Source: Escherichia phage aaroes. From it: a stretch of DNA of 51,662 bases. Of the stretch, positions 3,248 to 10,641 are shown in pieces (the stretch's first letter is position 1; the number at the start of each line of letters is the position of its first letter). Made by a program: the position numbers and the translations under genes. The DNA lies in the sequence record NC_049826.1. One strand, given 5' to 3'. Below the pieces are notes generated by a model, which saw nothing but the letters and a program-made list of their open reading frames with translations, searched no databases and was not told where the DNA came from.

Positions 3248-3436
3248 AATACGCTTTACAGTAACCAACAAAACTCCGTCCTCATCACACAAATTATGCT
3301 CTGATATATCAAACGCTCGCATGTCAGAATGAATGAGCGTTAACATTGCGTGCATGAAGTCGTCATGTGAGATTGAACTTACGGCGCAGAACTTCAATAT
3401 TTTGTCTATTAGCATTTGACGTAAACAATTCTTCAT
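3242..3436 (-). CDS. hypothetical protein (64 aa)
   Basis: GGAGA RBS before ATG at 3436; overlaps the 3' end of the upstream ORF by 74 nt in another frame; stop TAG is inside the repeat core. Confidence 0.4.
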   Translation of the reverse strand: MKNCLRQMLIDKILKFCAVSSISHDDFMHAMLTLIHSDMRAFDISEHNLCDEDGVLLVTVKRIE

Positions 3437-3755
3437 CGCTCATTTCTCCGATCCGTAAAACATCCCTTACCCATTCGTTTTGCATACCTTCCAGGCTGTA
3501 AAGTTCAAACGAGAAAGGGCGATTTGCTGATCCTTTCTTACACCAGAACTTTCCACCAACTCCATCAAGATAACCAGCGGTCATCATTCTTGCGCAAAAT
3601 TCTTTTGAAACGGCAGTTGCAAACATCCTCGGCGTAAATCCTGCGGCCCTTGCGAGCCGCTCACATTCTCTGTGCTGAAAGATAAATTTTGCTATATGTT
3701 GACGTGTAAACCATTCGAATGACTCACACCAGCGATACAGATCCAGAAGAAACAT
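3363..3755 (-). CDS. hypothetical protein (130 aa)
   Basis: ATG 2 nt after the stop of the P-loop gene (translational coupling). Confidence 0.5.
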   Translation of the reverse strand: MFLLDLYRWCESFEWFTRQHIAKFIFQHRECERLARAAGFTPRMFATAVSKEFCARMMTAGYLDGVGGKFWCKKGSANRPFSFELYSLEGMQNEWVRDVLRIGEMSDEELFTSNANRQNIEVLRRKFNLT

Positions 3756-3757
3756 AA

Positions 3758-5341
3758 TTACCCTAGCAATGTTGGATTTACGAAAACAACGCCATTAATC
3801 ACACAAATATAATTTCTTTCCTCAAGCATCGGAAGCAGTTGCGTTTCCATGCGCTTCATTACTCCAGCCTGACCAACAAAAGGCTTAACTTTTCGTGCAG
3901 CCTCATATATGGCGCGCACATTCAAGATTCCCTTATTAGCCTTTCCGTGTCGAGTGATGATCTCGATTAGTTTACCCATTTCAGCATCATCACCAGCATA
4001 GCCAGAAGCGTTTGCGGCGCTAATGTATGTTTTGCTCAACTCGCTAAACATCAGCAATGCTTCCTGAACGGTTTCAACCTCAATCTCTTTCGACTTCTGA
4101 GGGTATCCACCAGGATTAAACCAATTGCGGATAGTGTGCAAAACCGAAGCAATCCTGATCACCTGCTTATCCATTTTGCCAAGCGCACCTCGCAGCATTG
4201 TATGCGAATACTTTCCGCCATCAGCAAGGTGCGGTTCCATCTCCTGACGAGCCATGTTAAGCACTCGCATTGCGGATTTGCTGATCTTAAGCTGGATGTT
4301 TGATTCGCTCATGATGTTATGGATCAGCTTAAAATATTGGCTTTTCAGTTCTCCATCAACAGGCTCATAAGTCGAATCACCGTTATCATCAACAAATTTT
4401 CGACGACCTAAAAATGATTCTTCACGCACAAGCAAATAACGCTCACTCACACCGATACCGCGCGATCCTGCATCCATGATGGCATTAATTGTTTCATCCT
4501 GGGCAATTACTGCCATGCAGCCAAGAGCTTTAAAACTCATGTTATTGTCTGCGTTTGCGCGAGCTATAGAAACATGACCGTGATCCCATGCTTTTAGCAC
4601 AAGTTCGCTGTTTGTTTTGCGTTCGCTATTGGCATATGTCAGACCTAAAAGGCTGTTAATACTCGTTGCCTCGTCTGAAATTACAGCAAAGTTACCCTGG
4701 CGATTGTTGATTCTTGCAAGTCCTTCCGGCGTGGTATCGGACACAGGGAAAACAATGTCACACATCTTTTCAAGTTTTTCTTCAAGATCTTCTTTCTCTT
4801 GGTATAGCGATTCCATATCAGCGCCAGATCGCTCGCTTTTCATCTCTTTTGCAAGACCTGCCAACTTTGCCTGAATCTTTTTTCGTTCCTTCTTTCGCTG
4901 ATCATTAATTCTTTCTACTTCAGCAACCATAGGAGCAAGTGCCAGGCTGTTAACGGCAGATTTACCAGTTGAAGGAGGCTGGCTTGTGACAACATAAAGA
5001 GCTGTCGGCTGATCCGTTCCGTGATACTCAACCGTGAAGCGTCCAAGCATTGCAGCAGACACGCATCCGATAAAATGCATATAGGCCGATGATTCAGGGA
5101 ATTGAACAGAGCGAGCAATGTTGCGCGCCAACTTACCAACAACATCAACATCATTGCCAAGAGAAATTACAGGGTAGCGATCGTTTCCGTTATTAACATC
5201 ATTAACCTCACCCCAAAAGCTGGACGATTGACGGTATCCGTTAGCCTGAATGGATACGCGCACCGGAGACAATCCTTGCGCATCAGCTAATTCGATAATT
5301 TGTTTTGGTGTTAGTTTATTGGTTTCAAACGAAAAATTCAT
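3758..5341 (-). CDS. P-loop NTPase of unknown function (527 aa)
   Basis: AAGGAG RBS before ATG 5341; Walker A-like QPPSTGKS and Walker B-like AVISDEAT; charged coiled-coil segment after the P-loop. Confidence 0.55.
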   Translation of the reverse strand: MNFSFETNKLTPKQIIELADAQGLSPVRVSIQANGYRQSSSFWGEVNDVNNGNDRYPVISLGNDVDVVGKLARNIARSVQFPESSAYMHFIGCVSAAMLGRFTVEYHGTDQPTALYVVTSQPPSTGKSAVNSLALAPMVAEVERINDQRKKERKKIQAKLAGLAKEMKSERSGADMESLYQEKEDLEEKLEKMCDIVFPVSDTTPEGLARINNRQGNFAVISDEATSINSLLGLTYANSERKTNSELVLKAWDHGHVSIARANADNNMSFKALGCMAVIAQDETINAIMDAGSRGIGVSERYLLVREESFLGRRKFVDDNGDSTYEPVDGELKSQYFKLIHNIMSESNIQLKISKSAMRVLNMARQEMEPHLADGGKYSHTMLRGALGKMDKQVIRIASVLHTIRNWFNPGGYPQKSKEIEVETVQEALLMFSELSKTYISAANASGYAGDDAEMGKLIEIITRHGKANKGILNVRAIYEAARKVKPFVGQAGVMKRMETQLLPMLEERNYICVINGVVFVNPTLLG

Positions 5342-5414
5342 TGGTGATAACTCCTTTTTGATGCGGCAATAATACCGCACCAATGCTACCCGCATTTAAC
5401 AAAAAATACTATTT
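5342..5414 (-). promoter_or_regulatory. early promoter-leader cassette copy (variant core AATAGTATTTTTTGTTAA)
   Basis: Core followed by inverted repeat ATGCGG...CCGCAT containing TATTAT, then AAGGAG RBS. Confidence 0.5.
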
Positions 5415-5630
5415 GATCCGCTCTATGCTAACTAAGATTTTTTCTGGTTCCTTTTCGCTATGGCAATGCGCGGTTACGGAATCAGCAAAATCAAAATAAA
5501 GTGATTTGTGGTAAGAAAGACCAATCAGCCATCCAACCATCGTTTTCTTTATTGGCCTGACTATATCGCCAGGCTTGAAGGTTTTTGTTGCTGAATAAGT
5601 CACCTTATAGCGATATTCAGTCTTGATCAC
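5409..5630 (-). CDS. hypothetical protein (73 aa, GTG start)
   Basis: Open frame with GTG start and GAGG RBS; stop TAG inside the repeat core; start uncertain. Confidence 0.35.
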   Translation of the reverse strand: MIKTEYRYKVTYSATKTFKPGDIVRPIKKTMVGWLIGLSYHKSLYFDFADSVTAHCHSEKEPEKILVSIERIK

Positions 5631-6013
5631 TTATACATAGCCTCAAACAAATGACAGCCACCAGCGGAAAATCCTACTTCTTCGCGGTATAGCGTCCAGC
5701 GGTCGCCAGCTTCATCAAAAACATAACCAGCAACAGCACCAAGCGCTCGCCCTTGCTCAATCTGGTAACGCTTTCCTTCTTTGAAATGTTTTTTGCACGG
5801 TATCTTGTGATCTACAAAGGTGCATTTAATTGTTTTTGTCTTGATATGACGATAGTCAGACTCAACAGCGTTTTGCCATTTGCTACCCTTTGTAATGCTC
5901 TTTACCTGGAATTGCTCCAACTCGATCACATCATCGCTACCAGAAATTTTTTCGTATACGGTTTTATAACGACCGTTCATCAAAACGTTGGTTTTATTGC
6001 AGATAACTTTCAT
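5627..6013 (-). CDS. hypothetical protein (128 aa)
   Basis: AAAGGAG RBS before ATG 6013; follows a cassette copy. Confidence 0.5.
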   Translation of the reverse strand: MKVICNKTNVLMNGRYKTVYEKISGSDDVIELEQFQVKSITKGSKWQNAVESDYRHIKTKTIKCTFVDHKIPCKKHFKEGKRYQIEQGRALGAVAGYVFDEAGDRWTLYREEVGFSAGGCHLFEAMYK

Positions 6014-6091
6014 CGTTTATTTCTCCTTTCGTTTCGGTGAGGTGATTATGCCAGGCTTTTACACCTGGCTTTTAACAAAAAGTGCTATTTT
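6014..6091 (-). promoter_or_regulatory. early promoter-leader cassette copy
   Basis: Minus strand: AAAATAGCACTTTTTGTTAAAAG, hairpin GCCAGG...CCTGGC, CATAAT, leader CACCGAAACGAAAGGAG. Confidence 0.55.
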
Positions 6092-6795
6092 GCGTTAGCT
6101 TCAAAGACTGCGCGGGCAAAACCGCGCGGGGTGAGGGAGCGGATCATCTTTGTGCGCGATGACTTGCCGCCAGTTTTGGCCCAGCCTGGATTATCTTTGT
6201 CGTTCTCTTTCGGCAGGATTAAAGCGCGTGGAGGAATAACAAAGCCGTTGCCAGTCCAGAGGCATGTTTTCTTAAAATAGCGATCCCGCGCCGGAATAAT
6301 ATCAGGGAAGTCGGGATGTTTATCATCTTCCGGCAGATAGCCAGCGTAATCGCACGGATGGAACGTATAATCAGGCTTACGCCATAACGTTGACAGCTTG
6401 CCTACAGGATTCTCTATCATGTAAGGAACACCGAAATAATCAGCGATATGCGCCGCTATTTTGCAAGTGTCGGCGGCCTCACCCTGGAACGATGGATTCT
6501 CAAGGCGCTTTTTGGACCAATGGCGAGATCCGCTATTCGCAAGGTCAGTGCAAGGTGGGAAGGCCATAATGAAATCAGGCTTACCCCAATTTTCAAGTTT
6601 TGCGGTATATTTGAATAGCTCATCAATCCACACATTAACGTAAAAAATATTGTCGTGGATTATGCGTACTGAGTGGTAATCACCGTGATCTGCATCATCG
6701 TAATTAAAGCAAATGCATTTATATCCAGCATCAGCCCAATCTTTAACGGCTTTACCAGATCCATCAAACAAAGAGAAAATTAAACCCTTATACAT
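6085..6795 (-). CDS. compact DNA cytosine-C5 methyltransferase-like protein (236 aa)
   Basis: C5-MTase motif order: I LFDGSG, IV FPPC, VI ENPVG, C-terminal LTPRGFARA (resembles the TPRE-ARLQGFP block); no room for a large target-recognition domain. Confidence 0.6.
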   Translation of the reverse strand: MYKGLIFSLFDGSGKAVKDWADAGYKCICFNYDDADHGDYHSVRIIHDNIFYVNVWIDELFKYTAKLENWGKPDFIMAFPPCTDLANSGSRHWSKKRLENPSFQGEAADTCKIAAHIADYFGVPYMIENPVGKLSTLWRKPDYTFHPCDYAGYLPEDDKHPDFPDIIPARDRYFKKTCLWTGNGFVIPPRALILPKENDKDNPGWAKTGGKSSRTKMIRSLTPRGFARAVFEANAK

Positions 6796-6804
6796 TTCAT
6801 CACC

Positions 6805-7029
6805 TCAAAACGGAAAGCATCGCTGGCAGTTAGGATCGAAGTTGCAGCCGCAATCATTGACAATCATTGTTGGATCTGCAAATGCAGCGCCGCATTCATG
6901 GTCCATATCCATTTCACCCAACGCATCATCAAGCGTCCTGATTTTATATGCGACTTCAAGCGCGGCCTCTTTATTCAGTCCGGCATCTTCTGCTTTTTGC
7001 AGTCGCTCAAAAAATCCGTCCTGACTCAT
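6805..7029 (-). CDS. hypothetical Cys-rich small protein (74 aa)
   Basis: Acidic N-terminus and C-terminal cluster of 6 Cys (possible metal-binding knuckle). Confidence 0.45.
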   Translation of the reverse strand: MSQDGFFERLQKAEDAGLNKEAALEVAYKIRTLDDALGEMDMDHECGAAFADPTMIVNDCGCNFDPNCQRCFPF

Positions 7030-7127
7030 TTAATAAACTCCTTAATAACAGTAAGAAGAATTGCAAGCCAAAGCAAACCAACAAGGCCAATCATCACGAC
7101 AAATAAAATATCAAGAAATTTCATCAT
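7026..7127 (-). CDS. hypothetical 33-aa hydrophobic peptide
   Basis: AAAGGTG RBS, tandem ATG, single TM-like helix; stop TGA overlaps the ATG of 6805-7029 (ATGA); below the ORF-track cutoff. Confidence 0.3.
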   Translation of the reverse strand: MMKFLDILFVVMIGLVGLLWLAILLTVIKEFIK

Positions 7128-7174
7128 TATTATCACCTTTATTTAAAGGGAGGAGGAAACCTCCCATTGATTAA

Positions 7175-7402
7175 TCATACAGCCTTCCAGCTTTCAATAA
7201 ACATGCTGTTTTCTTCCAGCAGTTTAATCAATTCTTCGCGCGTGTATTTGCGGATTTTACTACCTGGATGTGAGCCAACAACAAACACACCTTTGCCACT
7301 CGTGATTGTTAACTGGTTGATTCCGCAAGATTTATCCATCTTAATGGCGACGCGGTGATGCGCATCAACAGTGTGCATGATGTTAGTGACTTTAGCTTTC
7401 AT
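7175..7402 (-). CDS. hypothetical protein (75 aa)
   Basis: GAGGA RBS before internal ATG (MKAKVTN...); the track ORF extends into the promoter. Confidence 0.45.
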   Translation of the reverse strand: MKAKVTNIMHTVDAHHRVAIKMDKSCGINQLTITSGKGVFVVGSHPGSKIRKYTREELIKLLEENSMFIESWKAV

Positions 7403-7477
7403 TATGCAATCCTCATTATATTTGGTGTGGTAACTATACCAGGTTTGAGAAATATTGTTTAGCAATTAGTGCTATCA
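7403..7477 (-). promoter_or_regulatory. early promoter cassette, variant core (TAGCACTAATTGCTAAAC)
   Basis: Variant core followed about 21 nt later by TATAGT and then TATAAT just before the RBS. Confidence 0.45.
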
Positions 7478-7576
7478 GTTGAAATAGCCATGGCGCTTTG
7501 CTCGCTTTCCGTCTCCGCCATAATGATCATTAGAAACGGCAATCATCCAGGCATTATGGAATATTATTATCTTCAT

Positions 7577-7858
7577 CTAATTAATGCCAACAACGTTAAA
7601 ACTTACAACTTTTGTTCCGCTAAACACATACGCTTCAACAGATCCACCAAATAAACGAATTTTTCCCTGGCCATACTGCGCATTCATATTGCGCCAAACC
7701 GTCATGTTAGAACAGGACGCGTTACCATTCTTGATAAGATTATCCATCTTTTTCATTAGATTATGATAATCAAGCCAGAATCTATAAGCGCGTTGTTTAG
7801 TTCGCGCCGCCTTGATTGTTTCGGCTGAGTTTTTAAAATCGCTGTTTTTGTAGGCCAT
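7577..7858 (-). CDS. hypothetical protein (93 aa)
   Basis: ORF; stop overlaps start of the downstream gene by 1 nt. Confidence 0.45.
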   Translation of the reverse strand: MAYKNSDFKNSAETIKAARTKQRAYRFWLDYHNLMKKMDNLIKNGNASCSNMTVWRNMNAQYGQGKIRLFGGSVEAYVFSGTKVVSFNVVGIN

Positions 7859-8052
7859 TACACAACCTCCATAAAAGTATTGAATCCACGCAGTTTGAAA
7901 GCATTGCCATGTTTAACAACGTTCCATGTCAGGCCGGAGTGATACGCAACCATATCCTCAAGATCAATGGTGATGATAGCGCCTTTCTTAAAGATTCCTT
8001 TCTCGTGAGTGGTGTCGCGCTGCACAACTTTAACATCAACCTGTGTTTCCAT
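7858..8052 (-). CDS. hypothetical protein (64 aa)
   Basis: ORF directly behind a cassette copy. Confidence 0.45.
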   Translation of the reverse strand: METQVDVKVVQRDTTHEKGIFKKGAIITIDLEDMVAYHSGLTWNVVKHGNAFKLRGFNTFMEVV

Positions 8053-8129
8053 TTTTAAATACTCGCTCGTTGTCGATGCGCTTAATATACCAATCAGAGG
8101 CGCATCGTTTTTAACAAAAAGTGCTATTC
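8053..8129 (-). promoter_or_regulatory. early promoter-leader cassette copy
   Basis: Minus strand: GAATAGCACTTTTTGTTAAAAA, hairpin GATGCGC...GCGCATC with TATATT in the loop, leader CATCGACAACGAG. Confidence 0.55.
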
Positions 8130-8414
8130 AACAACAGATCCAGTTAAAGAGATAAGCTGCCTTGTGATCTTGTGTCTGCGATACTGACGCGCAACAACCG
8201 GAAGATTTTCACCGCGCTGATGACCGAAGCAGATCGGCAACTCACCTTCAAGCGATCGGAATCCACCAAATTCAAGATCCCGCACTGGCTTTGAGCGCCA
8301 GGATTCAATAAATCCGCGCTCGTCACGAGTGATATAGCGGTATATGTTAGGGAGTGGCAATTGTATCCCATCAAAATACACTGTATCGGTATAGCTGTAA
8401 AACTTAGAACTCAT
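8124..8414 (-). CDS. hypothetical protein (96 aa)
   Basis: Start at internal ATG (MSSKFYS...) overlapping the stop of the 50-aa ORF upstream (ATGAGTTCTAA); stop TAG inside the repeat core. Confidence 0.45.
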   Translation of the reverse strand: MSSKFYSYTDTVYFDGIQLPLPNIYRYITRDERGFIESWRSKPVRDLEFGGFRSLEGELPICFGHQRGENLPVVARQYRRHKITRQLISLTGSVVE

Positions 8415-8556
8415 AATCAACAACTCCAAATTCGTTAACGATCTGCGCCTTATAGAATCCGCCATTTTTAGCCAGGTTATAACAGGAGGCGACAGTCTCA
8501 AATTCGCGCGCTTCCGGCTGGCTGTTTTCGTTCTCCCAGGTAATCAGAGTAACCAT
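8404..8556 (-). CDS. hypothetical small protein (50 aa)
   Basis: GAGGA RBS, ATG right after the cassette; translationally coupled to 8124-8414; missed by the ORF track. Confidence 0.35.
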   Translation of the reverse strand: MVTLITWENENSQPEAREFETVASCYNLAKNGGFYKAQIVNEFGVVDYEF

Positions 8557-8636
8557 TTTAAAATCCTCGCATTCGTTGTCGATGTGTGTAATATATCGGA
8601 TCGCGAGGATTGAGTTTTAACAAAAAGTGCTATTTA
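8557..8636 (-). promoter_or_regulatory. early promoter-leader cassette copy
   Basis: Minus strand: AAATAGCACTTTTTGTTAAAAC, inverted repeat around ATATATTACACACATCGACAACGA. Confidence 0.55.
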
Positions 8637-8900
8637 GTCCAGGAATTCGATTTCACGTTCTCCAGTTAACGGATCTACAAGCCAGAATCCGAGCGCCTCA
8701 CCGTAAACACCGCCATAGAATCCAAGCGCCGCCAGATCTTCACCTTTAACGAATACCAGATCCCCGCTACGGCTTACGTGAGACACGTTAACGATAACAG
8801 GAAAGGTGCGATCCTTAAATGCAGGCCGCATGGCGTAACATCCATTATTAAGCAGTCGTGCTTTGCGCTTAACTGGAATAGGTGCATTGATACGTGGCAT
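8634..8900 (-). CDS. hypothetical protein (88 aa)
   Basis: AAGGAG RBS before internal ATG (MPRINAP...); stop TAA adjoins the repeat core. Confidence 0.45.
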   Translation of the reverse strand: MPRINAPIPVKRKARLLNNGCYAMRPAFKDRTFPVIVNVSHVSRSGDLVFVKGEDLAALGFYGGVYGEALGFWLVDPLTGEREIEFLD

Positions 8901-8919
8901 CTTTATTTCTCCTTTGTTG

Positions 8920-9159
8920 TTAACCATGTTTAACGGCATCCAGAACATCACAGGATTCGTTAATAAACTTTGCCATGCGCTTATCATCACCGACAGGTAT
9001 TAGAGCGTTACACTCGCATTTGTGACTTAATACGGTGACTTTATGGAATGATGCGAACGGCATCGACGGGAACTCCACTGTTTGCGTCAAGATCCGCAAC
9101 CCCATCTTTTTGGCCCTTACCTGGGCCTCTGCAAGTTCAAAATCCACTTCATTAATCAT
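8920..9159 (-). CDS. hypothetical protein (79 aa)
   Basis: ORF, overlaps the upstream gene by 4 nt. Confidence 0.45.
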   Translation of the reverse strand: MINEVDFELAEAQVRAKKMGLRILTQTVEFPSMPFASFHKVTVLSHKCECNALIPVGDDKRMAKFINESCDVLDAVKHG

Positions 9160-9428
9160 TTCTTGATCTCCTCAGCAATGAACTTCAATACCTTGCGCAA
9201 AAACACTTCGTTATTGATGGTGGCTGGCAATTCTTCTTTCACTTCTTGCGGCAGGTAAATATTGCCGTGCCAGGTTAAGCAATCGTAGTTGATGCGGTAA
9301 GAGCAAAGCCACTCGCAATCGTTATCCGCTTCCCAAATGCAAAGCTGCATGACGTCGCCAAAATCTTCAACAGTCAGTTCCAGGCCATGACGCTTAGCGA
9401 AGTTGAAAGTTGTTTTGCTGATGTTCAT
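9156..9428 (-). CDS. hypothetical protein (90 aa)
   Basis: ORF behind a cassette copy, RBS GGAGACGG. Confidence 0.45.
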   Translation of the reverse strand: MNISKTTFNFAKRHGLELTVEDFGDVMQLCIWEADNDCEWLCSYRINYDCLTWHGNIYLPQEVKEELPATINNEVFLRKVLKFIAEEIKK

Positions 9429-9513
9429 CTTACCGTCTCCTGATGGGTGTCTCGTTTCGATGTGTGTAATGTACCCGATCAGGCGGATTCAGTTTTAACA
9501 AAAAGTGCTATTT
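9429..9513 (-). promoter_or_regulatory. early promoter-leader cassette copy
   Basis: Minus strand: AAATAGCACTTTTTGTTAAAAC, TACATT, leader CACACATCGAAACGAGACACC, RBS. Confidence 0.5.
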
Positions 9514-9514
9514 C

Positions 9515-9703
9515 TCAACTGGCGATTATTCCACCTATTCCATTAATCAGGAATAACAGGAATAACTCATTCGAGATCACCTGGATTGTGAGATCTTGAG
9601 TTTGATCAATTTTAATCAGGTGATTAACTTTTTGTGTGGAGGGGATAGAGAAACGCGATCCTCTCGCATCCTTTCCGGCAATCCTGGCGCGCAACATGTT
9701 CAT
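9515..9703 (-). CDS. hypothetical protein (62 aa), possible first gene of the leftward early block
   Basis: ATG after GGATGG; sequence is repeat-rich; stop precedes the cassette core. Confidence 0.3.
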   Translation of the reverse strand: MNMLRARIAGKDARGSRFSIPSTQKVNHLIKIDQTQDLTIQVISNELFLLFLINGIGGIIAS

Positions 9704-9719
9704 TATGTTTCCATCCGTT

Positions 9720-10060
9720 CACGCAAATGAGCCTCCGCAGTTCTTCCACGTTTCATGCTGTCATGCACACAAAAGAAACAATGTAAAATCTATATAAATA
9801 CACATTAAATCAATAAGTTATTTATATATGTATTTATATTTGTTTCTTATTGTTCTTGTTGTGTGATGGTTATTGGTATATGTTGCGATTTTTGTGTTGG
9901 TGGATATTGATTGTTTATTGTTCGATTTGGTTGATGATTATGGTTGCTCATGGTTGCGTATGATTCTTGATGTATTTATGTATATATCCGCGAAAATTCG
10001 TGAACAGCCACACAGCCAAAAAACATGGTGAGGATTCTTTTTAAATCATGCACTTAACTG
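9720..10060. other. AT-rich, GT-iteron-rich non-coding control region at the strand switch
   Basis: About 340 bp without a credible ORF; repeated TGATT/TGGTT/TGTGTG units; shares ATAAATCAATAAGTTA and TGTT(C)TTATTGTT with 39480-39800. Confidence 0.5.
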
Positions 10061-10111
10061 TGAATTTTGTTTCCGCGCAATCTCCACACGTATAGCAAAC
10101 AATTAGAACGC

Positions 10112-10140
10112 TTGACATCGACACGGCGCGGTGGCAACAT
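10112..10140 (+). promoter_or_regulatory. candidate sigma70-type promoter for the rightward early block
   Basis: TTGACA, 17-nt spacer, CAACAT, about 40 nt upstream of the first plus-strand ORF. Confidence 0.35.
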
Positions 10141-10179
10141 TGCAACCACCAACAAACAGAGCAAATAGGAGTTACTCTT

Positions 10180-10641
10180 ATGACTATGACAAGTAAAGAA
10201 TTTTGCGATATGTTGCGAGTTAATGCAGCCTCACTAGCTAACGGTGATGTTAGCGAACTGCAAATCAAGGAGCTTGACTTGCAATGCAATATTGCGCCGG
10301 AAGACTTGAGGAAAATTAACGCCTCATACATCCGAACGATTATGAATCGAACGCCGGAGGTGAAAGCCGTTGGCGTGGTGAAAGTTGAACGCGTTCGAGG
10401 TGATGCGGATATTCCTGATTGCTATCGCGTAACCATTAACAAGAATCCAAAGCGCCGATTGCTGACAGATGAAGAATTGCCAAAACTTGAAAGTAAGTGG
10501 CGAGCAAAGTTTATTGCTCAACTGCTTAAAACACAGCCGCGAATCAGCGATCTGGAAGGTGAGCGCCTGGAAGGTGCAGCAATCGCACTTGAGCGAATGA
10601 ATGAAATGCTTAACGAGATGGTAAAGATGGAGGATGAATAA
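10180..10641 (+). CDS. hypothetical early protein (153 aa)
   Basis: AGGAG RBS then ATG 10180. Confidence 0.5.
   Translation: MTMTSKEFCDMLRVNAASLANGDVSELQIKELDLQCNIAPEDLRKINASYIRTIMNRTPEVKAVGVVKVERVRGDADIPDCYRVTINKNPKRRLLTDEELPKLESKWRAKFIAQLLKTQPRISDLEGERLEGAAIALERMNEMLNEMVKMEDE

Follow-up and report, generated by a model that had tools for sequence, protein, structure and literature searches.

A compact gene of the T1-like Escherichia phage aaroes very probably encodes a single-domain DNA C5-cytosine methyltransferase orthologous to the Dcm of phage K42

The closest described counterpart of the gene analyzed here is the 711-bp dcm of the KarlJaspers-like phage K42 (strain Hzau42, genome of about 51.7 kb), which has been the subject of experiments (Wang et al., bioRxiv 2023; Cell Rep 2024). 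Loss of this gene or of its ribosome-binding site led to escape of the phage from the retron Ec86, the lesions comprising a deletion and a frameshift as well as, in two escape mutants, a dC-to-dA change located 9 bp before the dcm start (Wang et al., bioRxiv 2023). When expressed alone from pBAD, K42 Dcm raised the content of 5-methylcytosine (5mC) in purified Ec86 msDNA, as determined by LC-MS, and it triggered the retron by itself, being toxic only when Ec86 was present; a C82A/E128A/K175A/K176A mutant yielded neither 5mC nor Ec86 toxicity (Wang et al., bioRxiv 2023). Furthermore, the defense was lost when CCTGG in the msDNA stem was changed to AATGG, ACTGG, or CATGG, and a dcm gene was found in 34 of 35 Ec86-sensitive phages (Wang et al., bioRxiv 2023). 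The K42 dcm result was restated in a later paper.

The window, that is, the whole stretch of DNA that we analyzed, comprises 51,662 nucleotides of Escherichia phage aaroes (NC_049826.1), a T1-like phage of the genus Hanrivervirus (Drexlerviridae). The closest deposited genome overall is that of phage damhaus (96% nucleotide identity), while the region of interest shares 92-97% DNA identity with many Hanrivervirus phages, including damhaus, KarlJaspers/Bas06, pSf-1, and egaa. Direct reading of the sequence revealed an ATG-started open reading frame (ORF) of 236 codons on the minus strand, which has no upstream extension, since ORF calling takes the earliest start codon that follows a stop. The gene, its Shine-Dalgarno sequence, and its two Cys-rich neighbors are located as follows:

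6085-6795, minus strand: coding sequence (236 aa) assigned to a compact orphan C5-methyltransferase ("Dcm-like") from the ORF, phrog_757, KarlJaspers gp55, the K42 literature, and a DNMT3-like predicted fold
6803-6806, minus strand: Shine-Dalgarno GAGG (in GAGGTGA), 8-11 nt upstream of the ATG, read from the sequence
5627-6013: 128-aa Cys-rich ORF, neighbor of the methyltransferase gene
6805-7029: 74-aa Cys-rich ORF, upstream neighbor of the methyltransferase gene

The encoded protein is identical to KarlJaspers/Bas06 gp55 (bas06_0055) at 230 of 236 residues (97%, six substitutions), and all four residues altered in the K42 quadruple mutant (C82, E128, K175, and K176) are present in it under the same numbering. 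The Shine-Dalgarno sequence shares nucleotides with the stop codon that ends the 74-aa ORF upstream, and the K42 escape change 9 bp upstream of the start would map to position 6804 of the window, the second G of GAGG.

An earlier note, made from the sequence alone, had taken this ORF for a C5-cytosine methyltransferase of unusually small size, and both the assignment and the smallness were borne out, albeit not by every route. The domain search and structure prediction that it had proposed gave a divided answer. The protein scored 10.8 bits against Pfam PF00145, for which the cut-off is 22, with a match spanning motifs I-IV only, and no NCBIfam model matched it, so that the C5-methyltransferase call cannot rest on generic domain libraries alone. 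On the positive side, the PHROGs library returned phrog_757 ("DNA methyltransferase", E = 7.8e-86, residues 2-235), and the predicted fold was DNMT3-like. The assignment thus rests on phrog_757, the sequence motifs, the fold, and the literature on the K42 orthologue. In relatives, the gene is annotated as "DNA methyltransferase" or "site-specific DNA methylase" and, in the BASEL genomes, as "Dcm-like C5 cytosine methyltransferase". The best explanation, which we hold with high confidence, is that the product of the gene is a SAM-dependent DNA C5-methyltransferase of the PHROG 757 family that stands alone, has a single domain, and is orthologous to K42 "Dcm". It is a real gene, but of a kind already known, its orthologue having been characterized as an active C5-methyltransferase and as a trigger of retron Ec86/Eco1.

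The motifs I, IV, and VI and the C-terminal block, all named in the earlier note, could be read directly in the sequence and proved to be conserved in a family alignment of 26 homologues sharing 56-87% identity. Most motif residues, including G12, S13, G14, P81, C82, E128, N129, P130, and the stretch I218-G225, were either invariant or at least 90% conserved in this alignment. The elements of the protein are encoded as follows (all coordinates refer to the window):

6754-6777, minus strand: motif I, FSLFDGSG, aa 7-14, SAM-binding loop; G12, S13, and G14 invariant; aligned to M.HhaI DLFAGLGG and DNMT3B SLFDG
6550-6561, minus strand: motif IV, FPPC, aa 79-82, with the catalytic cysteine C82 (coding strand TTCCCACCTTGC); P81 and C82 invariant
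6496-6549, minus strand: catalytic loop after Pro-Cys, aa 83-100 (TDLANSGSRHWSKKRLEN); pLDDT 72-81 at residues 81-100
6406-6414, minus strand: motif VI, ENP (a variant of ENV), aa 128-130 (GAGAATCCT); E128 is the glutamate that protonates cytosine N3; invariant
6250-6273, minus strand: putative motif VIII equivalent, KKTCLWTG, aa 175-182, strand beta7 (residues 177-182 in the model), placed by position
6160-6249, minus strand: what is left of the target-recognition region, aa 183-212 (NGFVIPPRALILPKENDKDNPGWAKTGGKS), some 30 residues that are mainly loop; pLDDT 77 (191-200) and 56 (201-210)
6088-6156, minus strand: C-terminal block, aa 214-236 (RTKMIRSLTPRGFARAVFEANAK), one motif IX/X-like element that accounts for the two terminal helices; I218-G225 invariant

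Profile alignment placed F10-D-G12-S-G14 on M.HhaI F18-A-G-L-G-G, indicating that a motif I of the C5 type is present, and P81-C82 on both P80-C81 of M.HhaI and the FPC of E. coli Dcm. In the catalytic loop, G89 and K96 were invariant, while T83, L85, and S88 were at least 90% conserved. The ENP tripeptide, with Pro in place of Val, comes after a strand (residues 125-129) in the structural model. The motif VIII equivalent has no R-x-R, though K175, T177, and W180 were invariant and K176 at least 90% conserved; judging from their position and from the K42 quadruple mutant, K175 and K176 probably stand where canonical enzymes have Q-x-R-x-R. Residues 183-212 formed the most variable stretch of the alignment, coinciding with the lowest model confidence, and ended in the invariant pair G209-G210. 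The C-terminal block, of which aa 218-230 are IRSLTPRGFARAV (I218-R-S-L-T-P-R-G-F-A-R-A-V), was modeled as two helices (213-220 and 224-234) and is motif IX-like by sequence but corresponds to the terminal helix by position; its best local BLASTP match was motif IX of E. coli Dcm (RRLTPRECARLMGF), which is not significant on its own (E = 1.1). Motifs VI, VIII, and IX/X were placed by conservation and predicted secondary structure, the profile comparison having reached only motifs I-IV with M.HhaI or motif IV with Dcm.

The AlphaFold2 model, built from the family alignment (pLDDT 88.7, pTM 0.88), displayed a class I SAM-methyltransferase (Rossmann-like) fold of the C5 type. Among known structures, it most resembles the catalytic domains of DNMT3A and DNMT3B, in that the best 40 Foldseek matches were all DNMT3A/B/C catalytic domains; searches of PDB sequences gave only marginal DNMT3B matches (E = 1.1 with the single protein and 0.056 with the family profile). 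The model also agrees with the earlier remark that there is little room for a target-recognition domain (TRD), as strand beta7 extends to residue 182 and the first C-terminal helix begins at 213. From K176 to S220, there are 44 residues, compared with 139 between R165 (motif VIII) and N304 (motif X) of M.HhaI, whose reference sequence agreed with that of PDB entry 10mh throughout, at all aligned residues. About 35-45 residues are thus found where canonical enzymes carry the TRD, and both alignment and model lacked a folded small domain between motifs VIII and IX as well as separate motifs IX and X. In the model, the only candidates for reading the bases would be the catalytic loop (aa 83-100) and the loop 183-212.

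This compactness is a trait of the family and not a truncation. A word-indexed search returned 3,277 homologues, which among the matches listed were 157-262 aa long, mostly 226-262 aa, while an exhaustive profile search yielded 2,138 clusters at 50% identity (966 at E ≤ 1e-10), in which most full-length members had about 205-260 aa. By tblastn, the gene was found in 1,481 of 50,697 phage records (about 3%), the carriers including Drexlerviridae of E. coli and Klebsiella, Dhillonvirus, rV5-like phages, phapecoctaviruses, T4-like phages, jerseyviruses, the P1-like D6, and Arthrobacter phages. Two members exceeded the PF00145 threshold, the relatives P0112 and P0113 scoring 25.4 and 28.5 bits; one member is fused to a D12 Dam methyltransferase and one to an HNH nuclease. 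Of the fusions, P0257 (563 aa) and P0260 (348 aa), one has a C-terminal D12-class N6-adenine methyltransferase domain (PF02086, E = 2.5e-48) and the other an HNH nuclease domain. We also observed that about 20-39 records of the MG0656xx series ("Campylobacter phage A14b, A112a, B15 ..."), labeled as C. jejuni phages, match this T1-like region and the protein; the Campylobacter host labels appear doubtful for such enterobacterial-type genomes.

The best-documented consequence of carrying the gene, namely the triggering of retron Ec86/Eco1, is not visible from the sequence. Given the 97% identity to the KarlJaspers orthologue, the aaroes enzyme is expected to activate Ec86/Eco1 as well, in which case the phage should be sensitive to hosts bearing retron Eco1, such as BL21, and deletion of the gene should give escape. 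A 64-aa ORF located three genes upstream in the same leftward cassette (7858-8052, minus strand) matches PF25180, "Phage antiviral trigger protein Gp54" (E = 1.5e-37), so that the cassette holds two proteins known as triggers of bacterial defense.

Which sequence the enzyme methylates is a separate question, and here the most serious rival to the simple "Dcm-like" view arises as a variant of the best explanation: the protein would be an active DNA C5-methyltransferase, but with a specificity other than that of Dcm (e.g., CCW, CC, or the outer cytosine), and the name would be a misnomer. The CCWGG target of K42 Dcm is an assumption carried over from the name of E. coli Dcm (Wang et al., bioRxiv 2023), and we found in the literature searched neither a measured methylation motif nor a methylome for C5-methyltransferases of T1-like phages or for the compact family. 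The aaroes protein shows no significant similarity to E. coli Dcm, including its TRD (best BLASTP E = 1.1), and hhalign aligned the two over only 24 columns around motif IV, while a recognition remnant of about 30 residues makes it harder to picture how five base pairs would be read. MG1655 is a dcm+ strain, and its genome record contains dcm in intact form. The K42 experiments were performed in this strain, and with the empty vector its msDNA contained little 5mC and Ec86 was silent (Wang et al., bioRxiv 2023), which would be odd if the phage enzyme, which does trigger the retron, merely duplicated host Dcm. The K42 authors also mention toxicity of Dcm itself, a further point in favor of a differing specificity. 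On the other hand, a change of either C of CCTGG in the msDNA abolishes the defense, and the DNMT3 enzymes manage to read CpG and its flanks with a small TRD loop.

The composition of the window also speaks against this variant. Across its whole length, CCWGG is not avoided (120 sites, observed/expected ratio [O/E] 0.97), nor is GATC (284 sites, O/E 1.0), whereas CCSGG is strongly depleted (3 sites versus 12.7 expected), which argues that protection needs a central W; CCWWGG occurs once versus 19 expected. This argument from motif avoidance is indirect, since host Dam and Dcm would yield the same pattern, and the genome statistics are best described as compatible with a CCWGG target. In phage T1, which is devoid of the methyltransferase, the O/E of CCWGG is 0.82, but the difference between 0.97 and 0.82 was discarded as a test of specificity, being too small and confounded by host Dcm. 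As separate observations, CCSGG is not depleted in T1 (65 sites versus 45 expected, O/E 1.45), which makes the depletion in the window lineage-specific, and avoidance of palindromes is very strong in the window: 19 of the 64 possible 6-bp palindromes are absent from it, and GAATTC (EcoRI) occurs once versus 12.5 expected, GATATC (EcoRV) once versus 11.8, GGATCC not at all versus 13.3, and AAGCTT not at all versus 16.5. Taken as a whole, a non-Dcm specificity is possible, yet we regard it as doubtful. Similarly tentative is our suggestion that the protein is a C5-methyltransferase devoid of the small domain that uses a loop of some 30 residues to read DNA, perhaps dimerizing as DNMT3 does, and whose specificity may not be the inner cytosine of CCWGG. 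If true, it would represent the smallest natural sequence-specific, or deliberately relaxed, DNA C5-methyltransferase scaffold, and a differing specificity would explain why Ec86 is triggered by the phage enzyme but not by the host Dcm of MG1655.

The earlier note had also considered that an enzyme devoid of a TRD might act on a different substrate. In its broader form, this alternative holds that the substrate is not double-stranded DNA but tRNA or other RNA (as for DNMT2), single-stranded DNA only, or free nucleotides, and that the methylation of msDNA is a side activity. We consider it very improbable: K42 Dcm alone methylates DNA, the methylated msDNA site sits in a base-paired DNA stem, the closest structures are those of DNA enzymes (DNMT3A/B, M.HhaI, and M.HaeIII), the family includes a fusion with a Dam DNA methyltransferase, and the gene recurs beside Dam in the nin region of a lambdoid prophage.

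The distribution of the neighbors bears on another suggestion of the earlier note, namely that the enzyme needs a partner, for which the 128-aa and 74-aa ORFs were proposed. The order of genes, i.e., putative helicase (DUF3987), 73-aa ORF, 128-aa ORF, methyltransferase, and 74-aa ORF, is common to aaroes and KarlJaspers, but it is not preserved elsewhere. In an E. coli lambdoid prophage, the methyltransferase gene is located in the nin region between Dam/DUF6378 and NinG/RusA, in T4-like phages of 165 kb it is surrounded by small early genes, and in T7-like Salmonella phages it is placed between the genes for DNA ligase and an RNA polymerase inhibitor. No homologues of the 128-aa and 74-aa neighbors were found within 4 kb of the gene in the lambdoid, T4-like, and T7-like carriers, and tblastn of the carrier loci detected homologues of the 128-aa, 74-aa, and 73-aa neighbors in KarlJaspers only. 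Conversely, no homologue of the methyltransferase turned up in phage T1 (best E = 0.24), but T1 contains homologues of the 128-aa (ST7) and 74-aa (ST6) ORFs, which are adjacent and only 80 bp apart (T1 46621-47327). Since T1 keeps both flanking ORFs without the methyltransferase, the latter appears as a cassette-like insertion or indel within Drexlerviridae. The two neighbors were rejected as partners because of their distribution, and the suggestion of a partner-requiring enzyme fails also on the activity of K42 Dcm when expressed alone. A beta-subunit encoded in an alternative frame, as in M.EcoHK31I, was likewise rejected, as the open stretches in the +2 frame have neither a conserved start nor a conserved position across relatives. 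Split C5-methyltransferases do have a known precedent in M.AquI alpha/beta and M.EcoHK31I alpha/beta. That the aaroes protein is one subunit of such a pair, with the TRD supplied in trans by the 128-aa or 74-aa neighbor or by an internal alternative-frame ORF, is nonetheless very improbable and largely refuted, for although the TRD region is very short and the genes are so tightly packed that the stop of the 74-aa ORF overlaps the Shine-Dalgarno sequence, the orthologue works alone, neither the neighbors nor the +2-frame stretches are conserved with the gene, and a motif IX/X block is present at the C-terminus of the protein itself.

Several further features of the surroundings were noted. The leftward methyltransferase cluster ends with a 545-aa DUF3987 protein (3758-5395, minus strand; E = 1.9e-43), called "putative helicase" in relatives. 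Just downstream of the methyltransferase stop, a hairpin (GCCAGGCTTTTACACCTGGC) occupies 6047-6066, and its stem consists of two CCWGG sites (6051 and 6064). It is followed by TTTTAA on the plus strand, though the terminator scan did not call it; in the region 3300-10300, the scan for promoters and terminators found nothing above shuffled controls.

Returning to the DNA C5-methyltransferase that we favor, its action can be outlined from the established chemistry of the C5 family. The target cytosine would be flipped out, the C82 thiolate would attack C6 while E128 protonates N3, and the methyl group would be donated by SAM held by the F10-D-G-S-G14 loop, with K175 and K176 on beta7 replacing the arginines of motif VIII. 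The sequence would be read by the catalytic loop (83-100) together with the loop of about 30 residues (183-212), with no folded small domain and possibly with dimerization as in DNMT3. Expressed with the other small early genes of the leftward cassette, the enzyme would methylate replicating phage DNA, most likely at CCWGG. The earlier note had paired it with a separate Dam methylase encoded near the other end of the window, and this second enzyme was confirmed by its match to PF05869:

50725-51426, plus strand: Dam-family N6-adenine methyltransferase, 233 aa (PF05869, E = 2.9e-61, 206.5 bits)

In KarlJaspers, bas06_0042 is annotated as "Dam-like N6-adenine methyltransferase". With Dam acting at GATC, the C5-methyltransferase would protect the phage against EcoRII-type restriction, and the cost of the methylation would be that retron Ec86/Eco1 senses this activity. 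Such an anti-restriction role, which the earlier note had put forward, is plausible, although in the BASEL study the Drexlerviridae showed no connection between the methyltransferases they encode and their resistance to restriction. As to the McrBC-sensitivity assay that it had suggested, its value depends on the methylated motif. McrBC needs R-m5C, which is not created by C-m5C-WGG, so that the assay is informative only if the motif makes R-m5C. As a discovery, the gene matters little, being annotated in dozens of sister phages; the sequence that it methylates, and how it does so with almost no TRD, bears on minimal methyltransferase scaffolds.

A comparison with known systems places the aaroes protein as follows. 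With K42 dcm and KarlJaspers gp55, the gene has in common its length of 711 bp, its position, and the residues C82, E128, K175, and K176; six amino acid substitutions separate the protein from KarlJaspers gp55, and the figure of 97% identity refers to this protein and not to that of K42. With E. coli Dcm/M.EcoRII (CCWGG, 472 aa), it shares the chemistry and presumably the target, and both the PC motif and the R-x-LTPR-x-x-AR block are recognizable in it; however, it has half the length and lacks both the Dcm-type TRD and the N-terminal extension. M.AquI and M.EcoHK31I resemble it in having a short polypeptide with the catalytic motifs, but, unlike them, the phage gene has neither a conserved partner gene nor an internal ORF, and its orthologue is active alone. 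In M.HhaI (327 aa), the interval of 139 residues accommodates the small domain, motif IX, and the hinge, whereas the 44 residues of the phage protein leave one IX/X-like block. The catalytic domains of DNMT3A and DNMT3B, the nearest in predicted fold, share 15-17% identity with the phage protein at a marginal sequence E-value (0.056); they comprise about 285 aa and act on CpG as DNMT3L-assisted tetramers, whereas the phage enzyme has 236 aa and its dimerization is conjectural.
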